Assembly: GCA_963849945.1 (NCBI GenBank)
Contig: CAWKJD010000003.1
Coordinates: forward strand, 162,811-226,810
DNA from: an uncultured Bacteroidales bacterium
GTDB taxonomy: Bacteria > Bacteroidota > Bacteroidia > Bacteroidales > VadinHA17
DNA length: 64,000 nt
Direction of reading: 5' to 3'
The position numbers were made by a program, and so were the translations under genes. Position 1 is the stretch's first letter. Every line of letters starts with the position of its first letter. Below, in pieces: positions 7,399 through 28,756 of the stretch. Under the pieces are notes generated by a model that did no database searches, had not been told where the DNA came from, and saw nothing but the letters and a program-made list of their open reading frames with translations.

Positions 7399-7440
7399 TT
7401 TGATTAGAATTTAATCAAACTTATGATTACAATATAATCA
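7399..7440. promoter_or_regulatory. two adjacent palindromes, TTTGATTA-GAATT-TAATCAAA (7399-7419) and TGATTA-CAATA-TAATCA (7424-7440); candidate operators of the LexA-like repressor
   Basis: Same inverted-repeat half-sites (TGATTA/TAATCA, 5-nt spacer) occur twice within 55 nt upstream of the HTH-S24 repressor start, in the divergent promoter region shared with dinB-dnaE2. Confidence 0.5.
7416..7423 (-). promoter_or_regulatory. candidate Bacteroidota -7 box (TAagTTTG on minus strand) for dinB-dnaE2
   Basis: Plus strand reads CAAACTTA, which is TAAGTTTG on the minus strand and matches TAnnTTTG; overlaps palindrome 1; implies a 5' UTR of about 280 nt containing the oligomer repeats. Confidence 0.3.
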
Positions 7441-7451
7441 ATTTTTGTAAT

Positions 7452-8276
7452 ATGTATTTCGCATCGAACATAAAATTTTTAAGAAAACGTCGTGGACGTA
7501 CGCAGGACGACGTGGCATCGGCGCTGCAGATGAAGCGGCCGACGCTGAGCGGTTATGAGAATGGCGTGGCACAGCCTGGCATTGAGGCACTTGTGGCATT
7601 CTCAGGGTACTATAACATCTCTCTTGACACCATGCTTAAGATCGATCTGACCCACCTCTCCGCAAGCCAGCTGGGTGAACTCGAGAGAGGCTATGACGCA
7701 TATATTAAAGGCAGCAATCTCAGGGTGCTGACAACAACAGTGACACCTGATAACCGCGAGAACATTGAGCTGGTTAATGAGAAAGCCAGGGCTGGCTACA
7801 CCACCGGCTATGCCGATCCTGAGTTCATCAGCGACCTGCCTCTGTTTAACCTGCCGTTCCTGTCGCGTGAGCGCAAATACCGCACATTCCAACTCAGGGG
7901 TGACTCAATGCTGCCCATACCTGACAAATCGTGGGTGACGGGCGAATTCCTGCACGACTGGCATGATATAAAGAGCGGGAAGGCTTATATTATTCTTACG
8001 ACCGGTGACGGCATCGTCTTCAAGGTGGTGGAGAACAATATTGAAAAGAACGGCATGCTGGTCCTCTTCTCCCTCAATCCGCTCTATGAGCCCTATGAGG
8101 TTCATATAAATGATGTTAAGGAGATATGGAAGTTTGTGCATTACATAAGTGACGAGCTTCCGGAGCCGGTTCTGCCCGAAAAACAGCTCCTCCGCACCGT
8201 AGCCACCATGAAACAGGACCTGTACCAGCTTAAGAAAAGTATCGCGCGTGATATTCAGGATGCGACTGAACTGTAG
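7452..8276 (+). CDS. LexA-like repressor (XRE-type HTH plus S24 self-cleaving peptidase domain)
   Basis: 274-aa ORF; N-terminal HTH (RGRTQDDVASALQMKRPTLSGYENG), C-terminal S24 motifs (LRGDSMLP catalytic Ser, later GIVFKVV Lys); divergent from dinB-dnaE2. Confidence 0.8.
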   Translation: MYFASNIKFLRKRRGRTQDDVASALQMKRPTLSGYENGVAQPGIEALVAFSGYYNISLDTMLKIDLTHLSASQLGELERGYDAYIKGSNLRVLTTTVTPDNRENIELVNEKARAGYTTGYADPEFISDLPLFNLPFLSRERKYRTFQLRGDSMLPIPDKSWVTGEFLHDWHDIKSGKAYIILTTGDGIVFKVVENNIEKNGMLVLFSLNPLYEPYEVHINDVKEIWKFVHYISDELPEPVLPEKQLLRTVATMKQDLYQLKKSIARDIQDATEL

Positions 8277-10877: not shown

Positions 10878-11900
10878 TCAGGAGACAGCAACGGGTAATT
10901 TTCTCCATGCTATGAAAAGGAGGGAAACCGCCACACACGAAAAAACAATGTTACCTATAAGATCAGTAGTTAATGAAACAGTTCCGACAGAAGGCTTCTG
11001 AACAAACCCGAACCATATATAAGTAAAGGTCAGGCCTGCCACGACAGAAAAACCATGCTTTGTTGTCCAGCCGGAGCGTAAAGACCATATCCATAATAAT
11101 ATACAACCGCTACCAAGGAAGGTTACCATTCCTGCCACATTCAGAAGAGCAGCGATCCGGCCGGTAAAGTACGTCATCGTCATGAAGCCCGAACTGAGCA
11201 GGAATGCAGCCAAGCCGGTAAGTATGGGTGGAGGCACATTTCCTTTCTTTACCCGGGAGGCTCTTTTCGGATTACCAATCAATATTCCCGATATAATTAA
11301 TATAACGATAACAATCAGAGAACCAGTGAATTGCCAGGCTGAAGCCATAAATTCTTCATCTTTTCGCCTCAGAACAGTCTGTAAGCAGAATAAAGCAAAG
11401 ACAGTCAGAACTGCAATGAAGCCTGCTTTGCCTGTGAATGGGGCATCTTTTGTCTTCGGAAACAGGAATCCAATCAGGGCTATTGGCAGGGCGGTGCTCC
11501 ATACTAAGTGAATTCCAAGCACATAAACTGTCCACCATGAGCCAATTCCAGGACTTTTAATATACCCGTAGTCGAGCAAACGAAGTCCCAGGTAGTTTGG
11601 ATCGAAAAGAGACTGCGTAAGAATTGCTTCTTCAATTATTCCGTAAACCAGGCACAGTAAGAGTATCCCGTTCCACCTGAGTTTCAGGCGTACAGCAGTC
11701 TCCCTGATTATAATGCAGCCCAGACCATACATCAGGCCAAGGATCGGCAGCAACCATAAATATGTCAAAGGCATATTTCCCAACAAAAATTCTCCGATAA
11801 AGGGAGAAAGAAAAAATAATGCTGAAGCTGCCAGAAGGCGCGATCCTAAAGGCGGAAGTGGCTGGCTTTTCATTTTTTTCGTTTCTGATGAAGTTCTCAT
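10878..11900 (-). CDS. polytopic integral membrane protein, function unknown
   Basis: 340-aa ORF with about 9-10 hydrophobic segments; no recognised catalytic motif. Confidence 0.55.
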   Translation of the reverse strand: MRTSSETKKMKSQPLPPLGSRLLAASALFFLSPFIGEFLLGNMPLTYLWLLPILGLMYGLGCIIIRETAVRLKLRWNGILLLCLVYGIIEEAILTQSLFDPNYLGLRLLDYGYIKSPGIGSWWTVYVLGIHLVWSTALPIALIGFLFPKTKDAPFTGKAGFIAVLTVFALFCLQTVLRRKDEEFMASAWQFTGSLIVIVILIISGILIGNPKRASRVKKGNVPPPILTGLAAFLLSSGFMTMTYFTGRIAALLNVAGMVTFLGSGCILLWIWSLRSGWTTKHGFSVVAGLTFTYIWFGFVQKPSVGTVSLTTDLIGNIVFSCVAVSLLFIAWRKLPVAVS

Positions 11901-13468: not shown

Positions 13469-15967
13469 TTACTCGGCGGGATTATCCAATTGTTCCGGAT
13501 TCACTGTCTCACCTTCGGTATCATCCTCATTTACTTCAACATAGGCCACAGATGCGATTGAATCATTTTCCCGGAGATTTATCAGTCTGACCCCCTGTGT
13601 TGCTCTTCCCATCACTCTGAGACTGCTTACAGGTATCCTGAGAATATTGCCGGCCTGGGTGATTATCATGAGATCATACTGGTCACTCACGTCTTTGAGA
13701 GCAATCAGCTTACCCGTTTTTTCCGTCACATTAATTGTCTTTACTCCCTTTCCTCCCCTGTTGGTTATGCGGTAATCGCCAATTGATGATCTCTTCCCAT
13801 AACCGTTTTCCGACACTACCAGCACATCTTCCGATTCATTGAGTACTGTTATCATCCCGATCACTATGTCATCCGTACCTGAAAGGGTTATGCCTCGAAC
13901 ACCAGATGCTGTTCTTCCCATAGGTCTGACGGTTTTTTCAGGGAACCTGACGGCGCGACCGGACCTTACAGCAAGCATTATTTCATGACTGCCGTTGGTC
14001 ATTCGTGCTTCAAGGAGTTCATCTCCTTCTCTCACGGTGATGGCATTCACACCATTGGCCCTCGGGCGCGAATAAGCCTCCAGGGAGGTTTTTTTAATTA
14101 TACCCTTGCGCGTGCAAAGGACAATGAAGTTGTTGTTGATATACTCCTTATCGTCCAATGTCCTGACATTAATGAAAGCCCTGACACTGTCATCCTGCTC
14201 AATGTTTATAAGATTTTGCATGGCTCTTCCCTTACTGATGCGTGTTCCCTCAGGCAGGTCATAAACCTTCTGCCAGTAGCATTTTCCGTTCTGGGTGAAG
14301 AAGAGCATTGTGTTATGCATTGTTGCCACATAAAGATGCTCAATAAAGTCCTCATCACGCGTGGTGCCTCCCCTTGCTCCTGTCCCTCCCCTGTTCTGAC
14401 GGCGGAATTCAGTAAGTGGTGTGCGCTTGATATAACCCATGTGCGAAATGGTAATGACCATCTCATCATCAGCATAGAAATCCTCCGGATTGAATTCTCC
14501 TGCTGCCGGCACTATCTCCGTACGCCGCTTGTCGCCGAATTTTTCCTTGACCTCAAGGAGCTCATCCTTAACAATCTGCATCTGCAGAGCTTCATCTGCC
14601 AGCACTTTTTTAAGATGCTCAATCAGCTTCTGAACTTCTTCGTATTCAGATCTCAGCTTGTCCTGTTCAAGCCCTGTCAGCTGCCTGAGTCTCATTTCAA
14701 CTATTGCCCGGGACTGTATATCTGTCAGGCTGAAACGTTCCATCAGACGTTCACGTGCCGTGTCGGCGTTGTCAGACGAACGGATGATAGCAACAACCTC
14801 ATCGATATTATCACTTGCAATAATCAGTCCTTCAAGTATGTGAGCTCGTTTTTCAGCCTGGTCAAGGTCGAAGCGGGCTCTGCGAAGGATAACATCGTGC
14901 CTGTGCTGAACAAAATAATCAATAAGGCTTTTCAGCGGGAGCATCTTTGGTCTTCCCTTCACAAGGGCAACGTTATTCACATTGAAAGACGACTGCAGCT
15001 GCGAGTGTTTATAAAGGTTGTTCAGAACCACGTTGGCAGGCATCTCCTTCTTCAGTATTATGACTATCCGCATGCCGCTTCTGTCCGACTCGTCATTAAT
15101 ATATGAAATGCCCTCGAGCTTCTTTTCGTTGATCAGGTCGGCGATCTTGCTTATCATTTCCGCTTTATTGACCATATAGGGTATCTCGGTGACGACTATG
15201 CACTCTCTTCCCGAATGAGTAAGTTCAATTTCGGTCCTGGCTCTTACAACTATTCTCCCCCTGCCGGTTTCAAAAGCTTCCCTGATGCCCTGTTCACCGT
15301 AAATAATACCACCTGTCGGAAAGTCAGGTCCTTTGATATGCTTCATCAGCTCCTCAACGGTAATCTCATTATTGTCGATGAAGGCAATTATTGCATCAAC
15401 CGTCTCTGAAAGGTTATGAGGAGCCATATTTGTGGCCATACCTACAGCAATACCTGAAGATCCGTTTACAATCAGGCTTGGTATTCTGGTCGGTAGAACA
15501 GTCGGCTCCTGCAGCGTGTCATCAAAGTTTGGCTGGAAGTCAATTGTCTCTTTTTCGATATCTGAAAGTGTCACCTCAGCCAGGCGCTTCAGTCGTGCTT
15601 CAGTGTATCGCATAGCAGCTGGACTGTCGCCGTCAATTGATCCGAAGTTACCCTGACCGTCAACAAAAGGATAGCGCATTGACCATTCCTGCGCCATACG
15701 CACCATGGCATCATATACCGAGGTATCACCGTGAGGATGATACTTGCCCAGCACCTCTCCCACTATTCTTGCAGATTTCTTATAAGGCCTGTTGGAAAAA
15801 TTTCCAAGCTCTGACATACCGAAGAGAACCCTCCTGTGAACGGGTTTCAACCCATCCCTGACATCGGGTAATGCCCTTGACACGATGACCGACATCGAAT
15901 AATCGATGTAAGCCGACTTCATCTCCTCCTCGATATTTACTTTAATTATTTTTGCTTGATCTGACAT
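13469..15967 (-). CDS. gyrA: DNA gyrase subunit A
   Basis: 832-aa ORF; [33 protein letters not shown] (QRDR), AAMRYTE catalytic Tyr region, C-terminal beta-pinwheel repeats. Confidence 0.97.
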
Positions 15968-25432: not shown

Positions 25433-25534
25433 CACAAAGAAGAACTCTGAAACAATAATTGATCGTAACTTTGTTAATTGAGAGGCAGACCAGTACAGCC
25501 TCCGGATTATGATTTCAGATTAATGACTGAGAAT

Positions 25535-26254
25535 ATGAAAAGAAGCATAATTTTATTTGTATCATTTCTGAGTGTCCTGAACATATTTCCCCAGAACACC
25601 ATCGCGTATCAGGCCGGGATTACAGGCCAGAGAAACCTGCAGGATATTGCTAACCTTGCACCCTATACCGGCGCCATGGGCTTTGATAAAAGGTACGAAG
25701 GGGTTAAAGGGTCAACCAGACTGTTTGACACTCTTGTCACGTCAGCGATCCTTGTCAGGGGCCAGGATAAGTACATCAAGCTGCAAAGCGATATAGATGT
25801 GGTAAATAACTCGCTGGTATTTATGCATTCCGGTAAGGGAGCACTTATGGAGATCCCATCAGATACAATTGCGGAACTATATGTCTTCAGGGATGATAAA
25901 CCTATGTTTTATCGGACGACCAGGGATATTAAGCTTGACAAGGAAGTTGAGGGTGATAAGTTCTATCAGGTTTTGAAGAAAGGTCCCGACACGTTCATCA
26001 AGATACCGGAAAAGAAGTTTGTAGAGGCAGATTACAAACGTGTCTTCAGTCCTGACATACGGTATGATGAATTCAAGCCGGTCAGCAAGTATTATATAAA
26101 GGGTCCTGACAGTATTTATCACCGGGTTCAGTTAAATAAGAAGTCACTTGAAAAGATGTTTCCCGATAAGAAAGAGCTGATTGAAAAGGGTTTTGAGGGT
26201 AAGTTTGAAAGTGACGCGGAAATGGCTGTTATTTCAATTCTTGAGCAGTTTTGA
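25535..26254 (+). CDS. hypothetical secreted protein
   Basis: ORF 25478..26254; likely start MKRSIILFVSFLSVLNIFPQ (signal peptide) at 25535; no recognised domain. Confidence 0.55.
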   Translation: MKRSIILFVSFLSVLNIFPQNTIAYQAGITGQRNLQDIANLAPYTGAMGFDKRYEGVKGSTRLFDTLVTSAILVRGQDKYIKLQSDIDVVNNSLVFMHSGKGALMEIPSDTIAELYVFRDDKPMFYRTTRDIKLDKEVEGDKFYQVLKKGPDTFIKIPEKKFVEADYKRVFSPDIRYDEFKPVSKYYIKGPDSIYHRVQLNKKSLEKMFPDKKELIEKGFEGKFESDAEMAVISILEQF

Positions 26255-26298
26255 ACTTACAGGAAACGAGATTGTTGCGCCTGCGACGCGATCTCTGA

Positions 26299-26327
26299 GG
26301 AGGCTGCTCTCGCAGCCTTCTTTTATT
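26299..26327. terminator. rho-independent terminator (AGGCTGC-TCTC-GCAGCCT plus T-rich tail)
   Basis: Hairpin followed by TTCTTTTATTT; lies immediately before the displaced tRNA-Gly 3' fragment. Confidence 0.7.
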
Positions 26328-26386
26328 TGAGCGGGAAACGAGACTGTTCAATGCATTTTCCCATGTAACTATTTGATGTATTTTTC

Positions 26387-26394
26387 TATATTTG
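26387..26394 (+). promoter_or_regulatory. candidate -7 promoter box (TATATTTG)
   Basis: Exact TAnnTTTG match 6 nt upstream of the ATG at 26400. Confidence 0.3.
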
Positions 26395-26399
26395 TAGCG

Positions 26400-26705
26400 A
26401 TGGGGAAGGCAGCAAAATCAAAAAAATATCTGGCGTTAACAATAACTTTTGTCTTGTTAATGACTAATTGCATTTCTGTCAATTTGATTACCCGGAACGG
26501 AATGATTTTAACTTATGAATGTTACGATTTTTCAGAGCAATGTGAACATTCATATACCCATTGTTTCGAAGATGAAATGCTATACTTTGAAACAGCCGCA
26601 AAACCCTGCAAATTAGAAATTCTAAAAGATTCTCTTTTATTTACCAACCCTGATTTCTCCAATTGTTATAGCTCAAAAATCTGGCAACCGCCAAAAAACT
26701 CCTAA
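26400..26705 (+). CDS. small predicted exported protein with C-terminal IWQPP motif (paralog 1)
   Basis: ORF 26373..26705, likely start MGKAAKSKKYLALTITFVLLMTNC at 26400; hydrophobic N-terminus; Cys/His/acidic-rich middle; ends SSKIWQPPKNS. Confidence 0.5.
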   Translation: MGKAAKSKKYLALTITFVLLMTNCISVNLITRNGMILTYECYDFSEQCEHSYTHCFEDEMLYFETAAKPCKLEILKDSLLFTNPDFSNCYSSKIWQPPKNS

Positions 26706-26750
26706 CTTATTATAATAGTTCATTGGAGTTTTAACTTTTAACTCTTTCAA

Positions 26751-27001
26751 ATGGTAAAAGAAAAGAAAAGGGTGGCGCTGATATCAGTTTTTGAAGCTAT
26801 TTTTTTAAAAGGATTTAACCTGGTTATTGGAATTCTGACAGTTAGTTTGGTGAGATTATCCGAAGCATTGCATTCGGGACTCAATTTGATTACTGCCGCA
26901 ATAACATTTTTTCAGTCAGGATATCTGATAAACAAGCGGACAAAGAACATAATTACGGACGCGGCAAAATCGAAAACTTCTCTGTCTTCGGGAGCCGGTA
27001 G
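26751..27001 (+). pseudogene. N-terminal fragment of a cation diffusion facilitator (CDF) transporter, frameshifted and truncated
   Basis: LISVFEAIFLKGFNLVIGILT...LSEALHSGLNLITAAITFF matches CDF TM1-TM2. After a T6 run (26908-26913) the motif ADKEHNYGRGKIENFS continues in another frame and stops at 26999-27001. Total is about 83 aa versus about 300 aa expected. Confidence 0.6.
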
Positions 27002-27037
27002 TAATTTTAAACATTTTATTAAATATTAAATACTTGT

Positions 27038-27818
27038 ATGAAATCAACCAGAAGATTATTGCAGAAATGGTCAATAGCATTAAGAATATTGCCATTAATT
27101 ATATTGGTGACCGCACTAAAGTTTGGTACACATAAATTTGGTTTTGAAGTGATGGAATTAAATGCGCTGTTCTCAAGTTTGGTAGCGGGCACAATCTTCC
27201 TTATTGGATTTCTAATTTCAGGTGTCCTTACTGATTATAAGGAGAGCGAAAAATTGCCAAGCGAACTTGCCGCACTATTACGAAATCTTTATGATGATAC
27301 ATTGACTATTCATAAAGGTAAAAACTCGGTGGCTGCCAAAGAATTTATTGTATTTCAACAGGACTATATCGGTTCCCTGAAGGATTGGTTTTATAAAAAG
27401 GTAAAAATTAAGGTTGTCTTGGACAAACTTAGTTCAATGAACGAATATTTTATCGCACTGGATAAAGAAGGTATACAGGCGAATTATATTATTAAAATGA
27501 AAAATGAGCAAAATAATATCCGTAAAATGATCATGAGAATCGATACAATAAGAGATACCGAGTTCGTTGGTTCTGCCTATGCAATTGTCGAAGCAATGGG
27601 GATTTCTTACTGTATTTGGTCTTCTTATTATAAGAATTGAGCCATTTTATGCTTCACTCTTTCTCACTTTACTGATAACTTTCTTAATATCATATATGTT
27701 CTATTTAATAAAAGACCTCGACAATCCTTTTGATTATGTAACCAGGGGAGAAACTGGAACAGAAATATCATTAAAACCAATTCACGATTTTGCAGCGATA
27801 ATTCTTGATTCGAAATAA
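27038..27818 (+). pseudogene. bestrophin-like/DUF4239-like membrane protein split by a frameshift
   Basis: ORFs 27038..27640 and 27567..27818 are in different frames. Removing one G from the G4 run at 27598-27601 joins ...AIVEAMG to FLTVFGLLII.... C-terminal LIKDLDNPF motif. Confidence 0.5.
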
Positions 27819-27825
27819 AGTTTAA

Positions 27826-28101
27826 ATGGTAAAAAAAATTATCAAATTCAGCATAACATTAATGTCTGTTGTGCTTTTGAACCAGACGTTGATGAATTTC
27901 AACAATTTACCAACACTGATTAATTCCGGGTGTTCAGTTGATTATGCTATTCAGGTGACTGAAGATAGTCATGAAGATGATAATTTTTCTTTTGGCAGTG
28001 CCACAAATTATTGCCTGACAATAAATCAAAATCTTCCAGGTTCACGAGGTCCATATATTATATCAGGGATTTCGCCGTCCATCTGGCAGCCTCCGGAATA
28101 G
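27826..28101 (+). CDS. small predicted exported protein with C-terminal IWQPP motif (paralog 2)
   Basis: 91-aa ORF; hydrophobic N-terminus (FSITLMSVVLL), acidic/His patch (EDSHEDDNFSF), ends SPSIWQPPE. Confidence 0.5.
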   Translation: MVKKIIKFSITLMSVVLLNQTLMNFNNLPTLINSGCSVDYAIQVTEDSHEDDNFSFGSATNYCLTINQNLPGSRGPYIISGISPSIWQPPE

Positions 28102-28174
28102 TATTTATTTATTCAGGATTCATTTCAAGGAGACTGGATTTCCGGTTATTTCACATTCTCATAAAAATGTAAAA

Positions 28175-28288
28175 ATGAAAAAGATATATATATTATTGTT
28201 GGTTTTAATATTGTCAATAACTGTTATTAGTTGCGACAGAGACGAATGCCCGGTATGTCATGAGTGTGAGTGTGTTTGTCCAGGTTGA
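28175..28288 (+). CDS. 37-aa putative lipoprotein with Cys-rich tail
   Basis: Below the track cutoff: MKKIYILLLVLILSITVISCDRDECPVCHECECVCPG; signal peptide plus Cys (lipobox-like), then 6 more Cys in 17 residues. Confidence 0.4.
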   Translation: MKKIYILLLVLILSITVISCDRDECPVCHECECVCPG

Positions 28289-28423
28289 ATTTCCCGGAGA
28301 AACTGAAAGAACTTCCGGTATGACACCGAAACTATTGTGAATTAAAATGTTTTAGATGATTACATTTTGAGTCGATTTTTGACAAACTCCAAAATTCAGA
28401 GTAGGTCAGTATGAATAATAAAA

Positions 28424-28450
28424 GCTCCGACGATGTCGGGGCTTTTTGTT
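28424..28450. terminator. bidirectional hairpin terminator (GCTCCGAC-GAT-GTCGGGGC) flanking the tRNA-Gly 3' end
   Basis: Hairpin with TTTTTGTT on the plus strand and CTTTTATT on the minus strand. Confidence 0.7.
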
Positions 28451-28452
28451 TG

Positions 28453-28527
28453 AGCGGGAAACGAGAACTTCGAACTCGCGACCCTCAGCTTGGGAAGCTG
28501 ATGCTCTACCAACTGAGCTATTCCCGC
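28453..28527 (-). tRNA. tRNA-Gly (anticodon CCC), with an atypical 9-nt T-loop
   Basis: Manual cloverleaf: acceptor GCGGGAA/TTCCCGC, D arm GCTC-AGTTGGTA-GAGC, anticodon arm TCAGC-TTCCCAA-GCTGA, T stem GCGAG/CTCGT with loop TTCGAAGTT (9 nt rather than 7). Confidence 0.8.
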
Positions 28528-28536
28528 CTTTTTATA

Positions 28537-28680
28537 AGTCTAAAGTCTGAAAGTCAAAAGTCTGAAGGTCTAAAATCACTACACTCTACTCTCTCCGCTC
28601 ACCCTTCACTGCCAACTTTAGTGCACTTTAGGCACTCCCAACTTTAATGCACTTTAGTCACTCCCAACTCCGAACTTCAC
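28537..28680. repeat. inter-tRNA spacer made of tandem oligomers: AGTCTRAA-type 8-9-mers at 28537-28575 and a 26-bp unit x2.3 at 28613-28680
   Basis: Read directly: AAGTCTAAAGTCTGAAAGTCAAAAGTCTGAAGGTCTAAAA, and CAACTTTAGTGCACTTTAGGCACTCC / CAACTTTAATGCACTTTAGTCACTCC / CAACTCCGAACTTCAC. Confidence 0.9.
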
Positions 28681-28684
28681 CCAG

Positions 28685-28756
28685 AGCCTCCCATGGGAGT
28701 TGGACCCACGACCTGCTCATTACGAGTGAGCTGCTCTACCACTGAGCTAAGGAGGC
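28685..28756 (-). tRNA. tRNA-Thr (anticodon CGT)
   Basis: Manual cloverleaf: acceptor GCCTCCT/GGGAGGC (one G-U), D arm GCTC-AGTGGTA-GAGC, anticodon arm GCTCA-CTCGTAA-TGAGC, T arm GTGGG-TCCAACT-CCCAT (C where U55 is expected). Confidence 0.8.

Follow-up and report, generated by a model that had tools for sequence, protein, structure and literature searches.

Directly 3' of a tRNA-Gly(CCC) gene of an uncultured Bacteroidales bacterium lies a 2,105-nt islet that is bounded on both sides by copies of the 3' end of this very tRNA gene. The DNA analysed is a 64,000-nt stretch of contig CAWKJD010000003.1 (hereafter the window, to which all coordinates without a label refer). Based on our findings we consider it probable, with about three chances in four, that the islet is a horizontally acquired, non-autonomous cargo islet resembling the cis-mobilizable elements (CIMEs) and that it entered by site-specific recombination in or near the T-loop of tRNA-Gly(CCC). 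The incoming DNA would have brought with it a terminator hairpin and a copy of the final ~15-17 nt of the tRNA; this copy would now complete the tRNA gene at 28452-28466, and the original 3' end with its terminator would have been pushed 2.1 kb downstream, to 26297-26343. Since the islet carries no recombinase, recombination would have been performed in trans, probably by the tyrosine integrase of a co-resident or co-transferred element, and a cation-efflux (CDF) gene of the cargo would have lost ~950 nt after the insertion.

Repeats and terminators at the tRNA-Gly gene

The features on which this reading is based are:

26326-26343: distal direct repeat, attachment site (att)-like; a copy of the tRNA-Gly 3' end at 26329-26343 plus 3 nt of flank
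26344-28448, all genes on the plus strand: the islet, 2,105 nt, bounded by the tRNA 3'-end repeats
28392-28448: tRNA-proximal end of the islet, resembling the right arm of a conserved ~172-nt module (X module, see below) and containing the terminator hairpin 28423-28443 (nhmmer, allele comparison)
28449-28466: proximal direct repeat, made up of the final 15 nt of the functional tRNA-Gly gene and 3 nt of flank
28452/3-28527, minus strand: tRNA-Gly(CCC), the probable integration target (ARAGORN and Rfam tRNA model)

Two exact copies of the 18-mer TTTGAGCGGGAAACGAGA, at 26326-26343 and 28449-28466, are the only ones in the 64-kb window, even when up to three mismatches are allowed, and two matches were reached in none of 100 shuffles. 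The repeat can be extended to 23 nt, 22 of which are identical (26321-26343 versus 28444-28466). An earlier reading of this DNA from its letters alone (the sequence-only reading) had described this pair, each copy beside a hairpin, and had done so correctly; that the repeat overlaps the tRNA end stands as well, but it consists of 15 nt of the tRNA 3' end and 3 nt of flank or trailer rather than of 14 nt and 4 nt. The tRNA part comprises the 3' strand of the acceptor stem, the 3' strand of the T-stem and the first base of the T-loop.

Each copy of the repeat is preceded by a GC-rich hairpin with a T-run. Beside the distal copy a terminator scan places the stem at 26297-26322, followed by the T-run, and beside the proximal copy the hairpin AGCTCCGAC/GTCGGGGCT spans 28423-28443. 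The two hairpins allow the original 3' end to be told from the incoming one. L003 (comparison genomes and loci carry L numbers), the closest other species with an HtpX 92% identical to that of the window, shows the order flank gene, hairpin, 15-mer, ~156 nt, hairpin GGCTGCTTGCGCAGCC and tRNA. The hairpin at the distal repeat of the window (GGCTGCTCTCGCAGCC) is the host-type allele that is tRNA-adjacent in L003, L002 and L009, and the hairpin now beside the window tRNA is another, 'foreign' allele with a CCGACGATGTCGG core. A host-type hairpin at the distal repeat and a different allele beside the tRNA are what a displacement of the original 3' end predicts, as the sequence-only reading had proposed on the grounds of the repeats. 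Moreover, the segment 28392-28448 matches positions 116-174 of the X-module profile with E = 1.7e-7 (nhmmer), i.e. the tRNA-proximal islet end carries a module arm together with the foreign hairpin.

The tRNA-Gly(CCC) gene 3' of which the islet sits is intact and scores 65.5 bits with the Rfam tRNA model, with a 2-nt insertion in the T-loop. This loop comprises 9 nt (UUCGAAGUU, plus strand 28466-28474), its extra bases lying exactly at the inner edge of the repeat. In an alignment of eleven genomes, in which the tRNA bodies are otherwise nearly identical, the T-loop has 7 nt (UUCGAAU or UUCGAGU) in nine related species and 8 nt (UUCGAAAU, L001:11734-11741) in L001, a second islet-bearing strain. 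The abnormal T-loop is thus confined to the two islet-bearing genomes that have the tRNA-Gly gene on the contig. The T-loop is one of the preferred sublocations of integrases in tRNA genes (10.1101/2020.11.02.365908; PMC3146451), and as the odd bases lie where a crossover in the T-loop would occur we count them in favour of site-specific entry. The altered loop may be a recombination scar, but it may also reflect the onset of tRNA decay or an assembly error.

L001 is a 454-kb ENA contig with an HtpX encoded identically to that of the window, and the two are 97-98% identical over 17 kb. It carries the islet with the identical CDF deletion, but differs at the tRNA-proximal end of the islet, which is rearranged: window positions 28010-28407 are swapped for a different 167-nt segment with one more GAGCGGGAAACGAGA copy. 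Additionally, the T-loop differs as stated above, and a bestrophin-like gene that is split in the window is intact. Both sequences look like long-read assemblies, so single-base indels warrant caution. No integrase is found among the genes called around the locus in L001, and neither the islet nor the 8 kb to each side of HtpX in L001 contains a tyrosine integrase or a relaxase/oriT module.

Empty sites, cargo and its copies elsewhere

A scan for HtpX, taking one genome per species, yielded ten Bacteroidales metagenome-assembled genomes (L002-L011), and the arrangement LemA-HtpX ... tRNA-Gly(CCC)-tRNA-Thr(CGT)-FabG-SucD is common to all ten species. The distance between HtpX and the tRNA varies from ~80 nt in L009 over 200-385 nt in L007, L006 and L010 and 1.1 kb in L008 to 7.4 kb in L002 and 8.7 kb in L011. 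The islet is absent from all of L002-L011. The site is empty in L003, L006, L007, L009 and L010, and in L003 an ortholog of the flanking gene (79% identical) lies 225 nt from the tRNA; the empty site that the sequence-only reading had suggested looking for in relatives hence exists. Other cargo occupies the site in L002, L008 and L011, the large inserts of L002 and L011 holding unrelated genes. No integrase was seen in the inserts of L002, L011, L007, L087 and L091, those of L002, L011 and L007 having been judged from translated open reading frames (ORFs) and not all by Pfam. The tRNA-Gly site is a recombination hot spot that accumulates cassettes separated by tRNA 3'-end copies, each attached to a ~172-nt module.

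In composition the islet stands apart from its surroundings. Its GC content is 0.336, as compared to 0.469 +/- 0.031 in non-overlapping 2.1-kb tiles (z = -4.2), making it the lowest-GC tile of the window, and its tetranucleotide distance of 0.50, as compared to 0.23 +/- 0.05, is the largest in the window, so that an AT-richness previously judged by eye now has figures to it. The left terminus of the islet is TGTTCAATGCATT (26345-26357). In the form TGTTCAATG(C/A)ATT it recurs only at L002:15915-15927, where it forms the left end of an unrelated sulfatase cassette; no further occurrence was found in ~2 Mb of loci.

The genes of the islet and its left neighbour are:

25478-26254, plus strand: flanking chromosomal gene of unknown function; 258 aa from a TTG, likely start 25523 (243 aa)
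26403-26705, plus strand: IWQPP small protein 1, rich in Cys and His and headed by a signal or lipoprotein leader (listed ORF start 26373)
26751-27029, plus strand: remnant of a CDF cation-efflux gene, 92 aa; the N-terminal ~78 aa are kept, the rest is out of frame
27038-27818, plus strand: gene of a bestrophin-like (PF14023) membrane protein, split into the ORFs 27038-27640 (200 aa) and 27567-27818 (83 aa)
27826-28101, plus strand: IWQPP small protein 2, conserved in L082, L086 and L090 and truncated in L001
28175-28288, plus strand: Cys-rich mini-lipoprotein of 37 aa with the mature peptide CDRDECPVCHECECVCPG

This inventory agrees with the genes named in the sequence-only reading, i.e. a truncated CDF transporter, a split bestrophin-like gene, two IWQPP proteins and a Cys-rich lipoprotein. 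The CDF remnant matches the Pfam family Cation_efflux over residues 10-58 at 16.4 bits, as compared to a cutoff of 26.6, and lacks the full six-helix transmembrane domain and the C-terminal dimerisation domain of the CDF family (TIGR01297/PF01545); the intact homolog in L084 reaches 240 bits with TIGR01297. Blast breakpoints place the deletion junction at 26984/26990, with ~950 nt missing in comparison with the intact 300-aa genes of L082 and L084. The split of the bestrophin-like gene is real in the window and is due to one extra T in the T-run 27603-27605; as the gene is intact in L001 (259 aa), it may be a long-read homopolymer or assembly error rather than a pseudogene. Its C-terminal fragment scores 23.9 bits, as compared to the PF14023 cutoff of 32, and intact homologs carry the precomputed PF14023 annotation.

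The two IWQPP proteins and the Cys-rich lipoprotein match no Pfam or NCBIfam family. Homologs of IWQPP protein 1 occupy the same position in the cargo of L082, L084, L086, L090 and L166, and both IWQPP proteins are rich in Cys, His and Glu. The mature lipoprotein has seven Cys and one His within 18 residues, so that its peptide is a plausible metal binder; it shares 83-89% amino acid identity with its counterparts in L082, L086 and L090 and lies in a region covered by the 81-83% DNA matches of L165 and L166. Judged by their residues, the Cys-rich lipoprotein, the IWQPP proteins and the CDF transporter together suggest a metal-handling cassette, and a role of the cargo in metal or ion homeostasis is plausible.

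Genomic-context look-ups and a metagenome scan revealed that the cargo is a discrete module of ~2.95 kb, comprising an IWQPP protein, the CDF transporter (300 aa), a 36-aa peptide, the bestrophin-like protein, a second IWQPP protein and the Cys-rich 37-aa lipoprotein. The islet is homologous to the copies of this cargo module in L082, L084, L086, L087, L090, L091 and L165-L167, different copies have end points in common, and the GC content of the module is 31-35% in hosts whose flanks have 41-59% GC. For the intact bestrophin-like protein alone there are >40 homologs with 88-97% identity. In L082, L084, L091, L165 and L166 the tmRNA gene is directly followed by the cargo module, and in L087 and L167 the module is situated 3' of tRNA-Pro(CGG); in L086, which belongs to the same genus but to another species, it is found with an intact CDF gene at the HtpX/tRNA-Gly(CCC) locus itself. 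Several of these copies have footprints like that in the window. In L167 a 7.3-kb island, which contains an insertion sequence (IS) of the IS21 type and the cargo module, is bounded by the 15-nt repeat TCTTCTCACCCCGAC, which extends from the T-loop edge to the tRNA end as in the window. L084 has a 15-nt tmRNA-end repeat (7 nt of the tmRNA end plus 8 nt of flank) at a distance of 3.2 kb, and L091 a 14-nt direct repeat of the tmRNA 3' end at a distance of 600 nt.

The sequence-only reading had recommended a search for copies linked to integrases elsewhere, and one such copy exists. In L165 the cargo module has the tmRNA gene on one side and a tyrosine integrase on the other. The integrase was called in two pieces, with Arm-DNA-bind_5/SAM_5 and a catalytic domain, and module and integrase fall within a low-GC island of >11 kb whose further genes include HipAB and McrBC-like ones. 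This copy is the sole exception among ten other context-resolved copies, nine of which have no adjacent integrase. Where the cargo module is located at tmRNA, a ~60-115-nt element occurs on both sides of it, the two copies being inverted in L082 (3879-3994 / 7423-7539) and L084 (5209-5261 / 7897-7949) and direct in L165 (8200-8290 / 11420-11510); the inverted arm of L082 contains an inverted copy of the tmRNA 3' end together with its terminator. These orientations suggest an inversion or a second recombination system. Around the window islet there are no terminal inverted repeats of the kind seen in L082 and L084.

In two genomes the cargo is associated with insertion sequences: at L083:5769-7780 the bestrophin-like gene lies beside IS3 fragments and a YoeB/Phd toxin-antitoxin pair, and at L167:5515-7837 the whole module lies beside IS21. 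Both contexts add to the evidence that mobile DNA carries the cargo along. At L089:642-2039 the CDF gene is deleted independently, with breakpoints unlike the 26984/26990 junction, suggesting recurrent loss of the CDF transporter while the bestrophin-like gene is kept. A phage origin was considered and rejected, as neither the module or its pattern nor a bestrophin homolog was found in IMG/VR.

The flanking gene, which was called as a 243-aa protein in L001, delimits the site towards the chromosome. Besides the window, L001, L003 (79% identical) and L005 (49%) have this gene, and the other relatives are without it. The hot spot may thus extend further to the left than the islet.

Mode of entry and rival explanations

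Several observations weigh against site-specific entry of the islet as a CIME-like element. As the sequence-only reading had already noted, there is no integrase in the islet; Pfam detects no integrase, excisionase or mobilisation gene among its ORFs, and no recombinase or intI among ten unassigned window ORFs of 321-416 aa. In L002 an X module runs straight into the left terminus TGTTCAATG.ATT with no 17-nt tRNA copy in between, a junction that a single fixed crossover point does not explain. The cargo module copies of the window and L086 are 81-83% identical and their HtpX genes are 79% identical at the DNA level, and this similar divergence would permit a long residence at the locus with repeated loss. 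Moreover, a tRNA 3'-end copy is an integral part of the X module, which means that some of the repeat copies here may have another cause, and both the T-loop differences and the frameshift in the bestrophin-like gene could be errors of long-read assembly.

It is rather unlikely that the islet arrived by homologous recombination, i.e. by allelic replacement from a congener with the cargo module at its HtpX/tRNA-Gly locus, the tRNA, the X module and the flanking genes serving as homology arms and the site-specific event having occurred earlier and in another species. L086, a relative of the L002 species, does have an intact cargo module at this locus, right after HtpX and a full X module, beyond the right end of the Cys-rich gene it has sequence in common with the window that is missing from tmRNA-linked copies, and the flanks (tRNA and X arms) are strongly conserved across species. 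The left junctions, however, differ, as in the window a tRNA copy and 33 nt precede the cargo module, whereas in L086 the X module abuts it directly, and the bestrophin-like gene of the window is nearer to those of L084 (tmRNA, 90%) and L087 (tRNA-Pro, 89%) than to that of L086 (~84%). Such a replacement would, in any case, still require a site-specific event, merely in another genome.

The cleanly empty site of the sister species L003, with its X module intact, is difficult to reconcile with a block that was ancestral to the genus at this locus and was lost in most species, the repeat being a tRNA copy that belongs to the X module and not an insertion footprint. Such a history is very unlikely: it needs four or more independent precise losses, the GC content lies 13 points under that of the genome, the cargo module is equally low in GC in hosts with flanks of 41-59% GC and is found at three different RNA genes in other taxa, and decay is seen in the older copy at 26262 but in none of the 18 nt of the repeat that bounds the islet. 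The agreement between the module identity (81-83%) and the host-gene identity (79%) of the window and L086 would fit an ancestral block, as would the tRNA 3' copy ~172 nt from the tRNA in most relatives, whatever the cargo. Even less probable is an illegitimate insertion into a structured intergenic region, with an 18-nt repeat that stems from a duplication of X module and terminator and not from an att crossover. Tandem X modules free of cargo do exist (three in L005 and two in L036 at tRNA-Ser), and the L002 junction has no tRNA copy. Yet the repeat stops exactly at the T-loop, a 15-nt repeat of this geometry also encloses the tRNA-Pro island of L167, the tmRNA 3' end recurs in direct copies downstream of the gene in L084 and L091, and neither chance nor slippage predicts recurrence at different genes.

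The site-specific entry that we favour has precedents in integrase-less elements. In the accretion/CIME model, integrase-less elements retaining attL and attR form a tandem array at a conserved gene's 3' end, where they depend on a recombinase provided by another element (PMC5704250). The CIMEs among the streptococcal integrative and conjugative or mobilizable elements resemble the islet in their intact attL- and attR-like repeats at a conserved gene 3' end, in the lack of integration and transfer genes and in their array with other att-bounded segments (PMC5704250). The islet differs in that its 3-kb cargo is met again, with no integrase, at three different RNA genes. CIMEs derive from integrative elements by decay; decay is visible in the CDF deletion of the islet, but no int, mob or conjugation remnant is present in it. 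The sequence-only reading had seen here an old, eroded island that had lost its integrase; the erosion of the CDF gene holds, but age and loss of the integrase are not supported. Since nine of the ten other copies have no adjacent integrase, its absence is typical of the cargo and no evidence of decay, and perfect repeats, strains of 98% identity that differ tRNA-proximally and an islet-free sister species do not support 'old'. The direction and the timing of the transfer, like the trans-acting enzyme, are inferred.

In NBU-type elements the segment of identity measures 13-14 bp. These mobilizable elements of the Bacteroidetes, e.g. NBU1 (tRNA-Leu), NBU2 (tRNA-Ser) and Tn6031 (tRNA-Pro), reside at tRNA 3' ends (PMC5704250). 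They share with the islet the phylum, the tRNA 3' end as integration site and a short identity segment, and their integrase is a tyrosine recombinase, but the NBUs are ~10 kb in size with int, mob and oriT, none of which is found in the islet. The ssrA islands of Dehalococcoides are similar in that multiple islands lie downstream of one RNA gene with ~20-bp 3'-end repeats between them, as well as in the T-loop as insertion point and in conserved sequence around the repeats, and some of them have no integration module and have been proposed to be CIMEs (PMC3146451). Most of these islands, however, have a serine recombinase (DsiB), whereas the sole recombinase linked to our cargo (in L165) is a tyrosine integrase, and only here are the repeats attached to a structured module of ~172 nt.

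The tycheposon islands of Prochlorococcus likewise grow next to tRNA genes with partial tRNA copies between acquisitions (10.1101/2020.12.28.424599); their variability is highest tRNA-proximally, they carry nutrient and metal (zinc) cargo, and they are mostly without an integrase. They belong to another phylum and another element family, and the islet has no tycheposon-type replication or integration module. The resemblance to integron cassettes is one of layout only, i.e. recombinase-less cargo is arrayed at a fixed platform with a structured, imperfectly palindromic element (~170 nt here) whose pairing is conserved more than its sequence. In contrast to integrons there is neither IntI nor attI, the repeats are derived from the tRNA and the module contains terminator-like hairpins; a search for attC-like families gave no match in Rfam or elsewhere.

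The X module 3' of tRNA and tmRNA genes

A conserved module of ~172 nt, the X module, lies between the 15-mer copy and tRNA-Gly in L001, L002, L003, L006, L007, L008, L011 and L086. L005 has three tandem copies, and in L002 and L011 extra copies stand between cargo blocks. The following copies are referred to here:

26262-26325: stump of the X module in the window ('X-short'); degenerate tRNA 3' copy (26262-26271), remnant of hairpin 1 and host-type terminator hairpin (26297-26322)
L003:5532-5702; L002:18171-18345 and 15739-15915; L086:1159-1325; L005:11828-12259 (three in tandem): full X modules
L027:1089-1247; L070:92-291; two copies in L036: examples of modules at tRNA-Ser(TGA)
L165:~11515-11694; L084:~7990-8180: modules at tmRNA

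The X module is composed of a tRNA 3' copy, a hairpin that uses the 3' half of the T-stem as its 5' strand, a conserved GGGGATGC...CAAA stretch and an outer stem that encloses two GC hairpins and a long central hairpin, and RNAalifold finds many compensatory changes in it. In L011 the module copy and its stem partner both track the tRNA variant of that genome (AAAAGGGA), and in L002 one module copy carries a variant that mismatches the tRNA of L002 itself. In the window only 26262-26325 and 28392-28448 remain of the module (nhmmer), with no match of the profile elsewhere in the window. The profile matches 26261-26311, and the stump retains 67 nt, its central ~105 nt being deleted in comparison with the full modules of L003, L002 and L086; the remnant of hairpin 1 is formed by GAGAT (26268-72) and ATCTC (26291-95). 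The sequence GGAAACGAGATTGTT at 26262-26276, which matches 26334-26348 at 14 of 15 positions, was regarded as a third, att-like copy in the sequence-only reading; it is instead the start of the X module, which lies 3' of the tRNA in most relatives.

The same architecture is found 3' of tRNA-Ser(TGA) at each of 12 loci from more distant Bacteroidales, and also 3' of tmRNA, often with a copy of the cognate 3' end at a distance of 164-190 nt. The length of the module is ~165-200 nt across the family. A profile built from the tRNA-Ser modules recovers the tRNA-Gly modules in full length (E down to 8e-10) and one tmRNA module (E = 8e-4). The tRNA-Ser modules have an outer stem whose sequence differs in almost every genome but is complementary within each. 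Rfam 15 contains no family for the module at either gathering or permissive thresholds, hits in the window, L005, L070, L027 and L055 being at chance level; apart from tRNA, the Rfam matches are to models of plastid untranslated regions and lie antisense across the tRNA genes themselves.

Two simple identities of the module were rejected. A tRNA-like RNA with a full acceptor stem would need a 5' acceptor strand, which is not present, and a miniature inverted-repeat transposable element or other dispersed repeat does not fit a profile that in ~2 Mb of related loci matches only 3' of cognate RNA genes (nhmmer). It is conceivable, if on balance doubtful, that the modules constitute an undescribed class of elements, either as the backbone of recombinase-less cassettes that dock at tRNA and tmRNA genes or as a new structured non-coding RNA, with the islet as one cargo of a wider system. 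In the former case miniature integrative cassettes may dock at the 3' ends of tRNA-Gly(CCC), tRNA-Ser(TGA) and tmRNA genes and form integron-like cargo arrays; in the latter the module may be transcribed as a structured non-coding RNA in which the 5' part complements the adjacent tRNA at its 3' end. A comparison of G-U with A-C pairs, made to tell which strand is expressed, is not decisive: in the tRNA-Gly modules it favours the one antisense to the tRNA (~28 versus 10 cells, hand-counted), and in the tRNA-Ser modules it is neutral (~9 versus 8).

Taken by itself, the islet is a textbook-type tRNA-linked acquisition of a known, integrase-less and CIME-like kind, and its use lies in being a well-delimited example for which both junctions, an empty site and donor-like copies are available. 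The most novel lead is rather the module family, i.e. one family of structured modules at the 3' flanks of tRNA-Gly(CCC), tRNA-Ser(TGA) and tmRNA genes of uncultured Bacteroidales, with which integrase-less cargo blocks (the metal module, a sulfatase, sulfur-related genes and transporters) are interleaved. If the module is a recombination substrate, it would explain how recombinase-less cassettes spread between tRNA loci and species and would provide a sequence handle for detecting such cassettes in metagenomes.

The upstream partner of tRNA-Gly is listed here for completeness:

28684-28756, minus strand: tRNA-Thr(CGT), forming with tRNA-Gly a conserved pair beside fabG-sucD (ARAGORN, Rfam)

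The spacer between the two tRNA genes (28528-28683) contains the tandem repeats AAGTCTAAAGTCTGA (15 nt, two copies) and CACTSCCAACTTTARTGCACTTTAGK (26 nt, two copies). Its length is 156 nt in the window, L006 and L009 have a spacer of 11-12 nt, and that of L007 holds a 5-kb insert with three genes.

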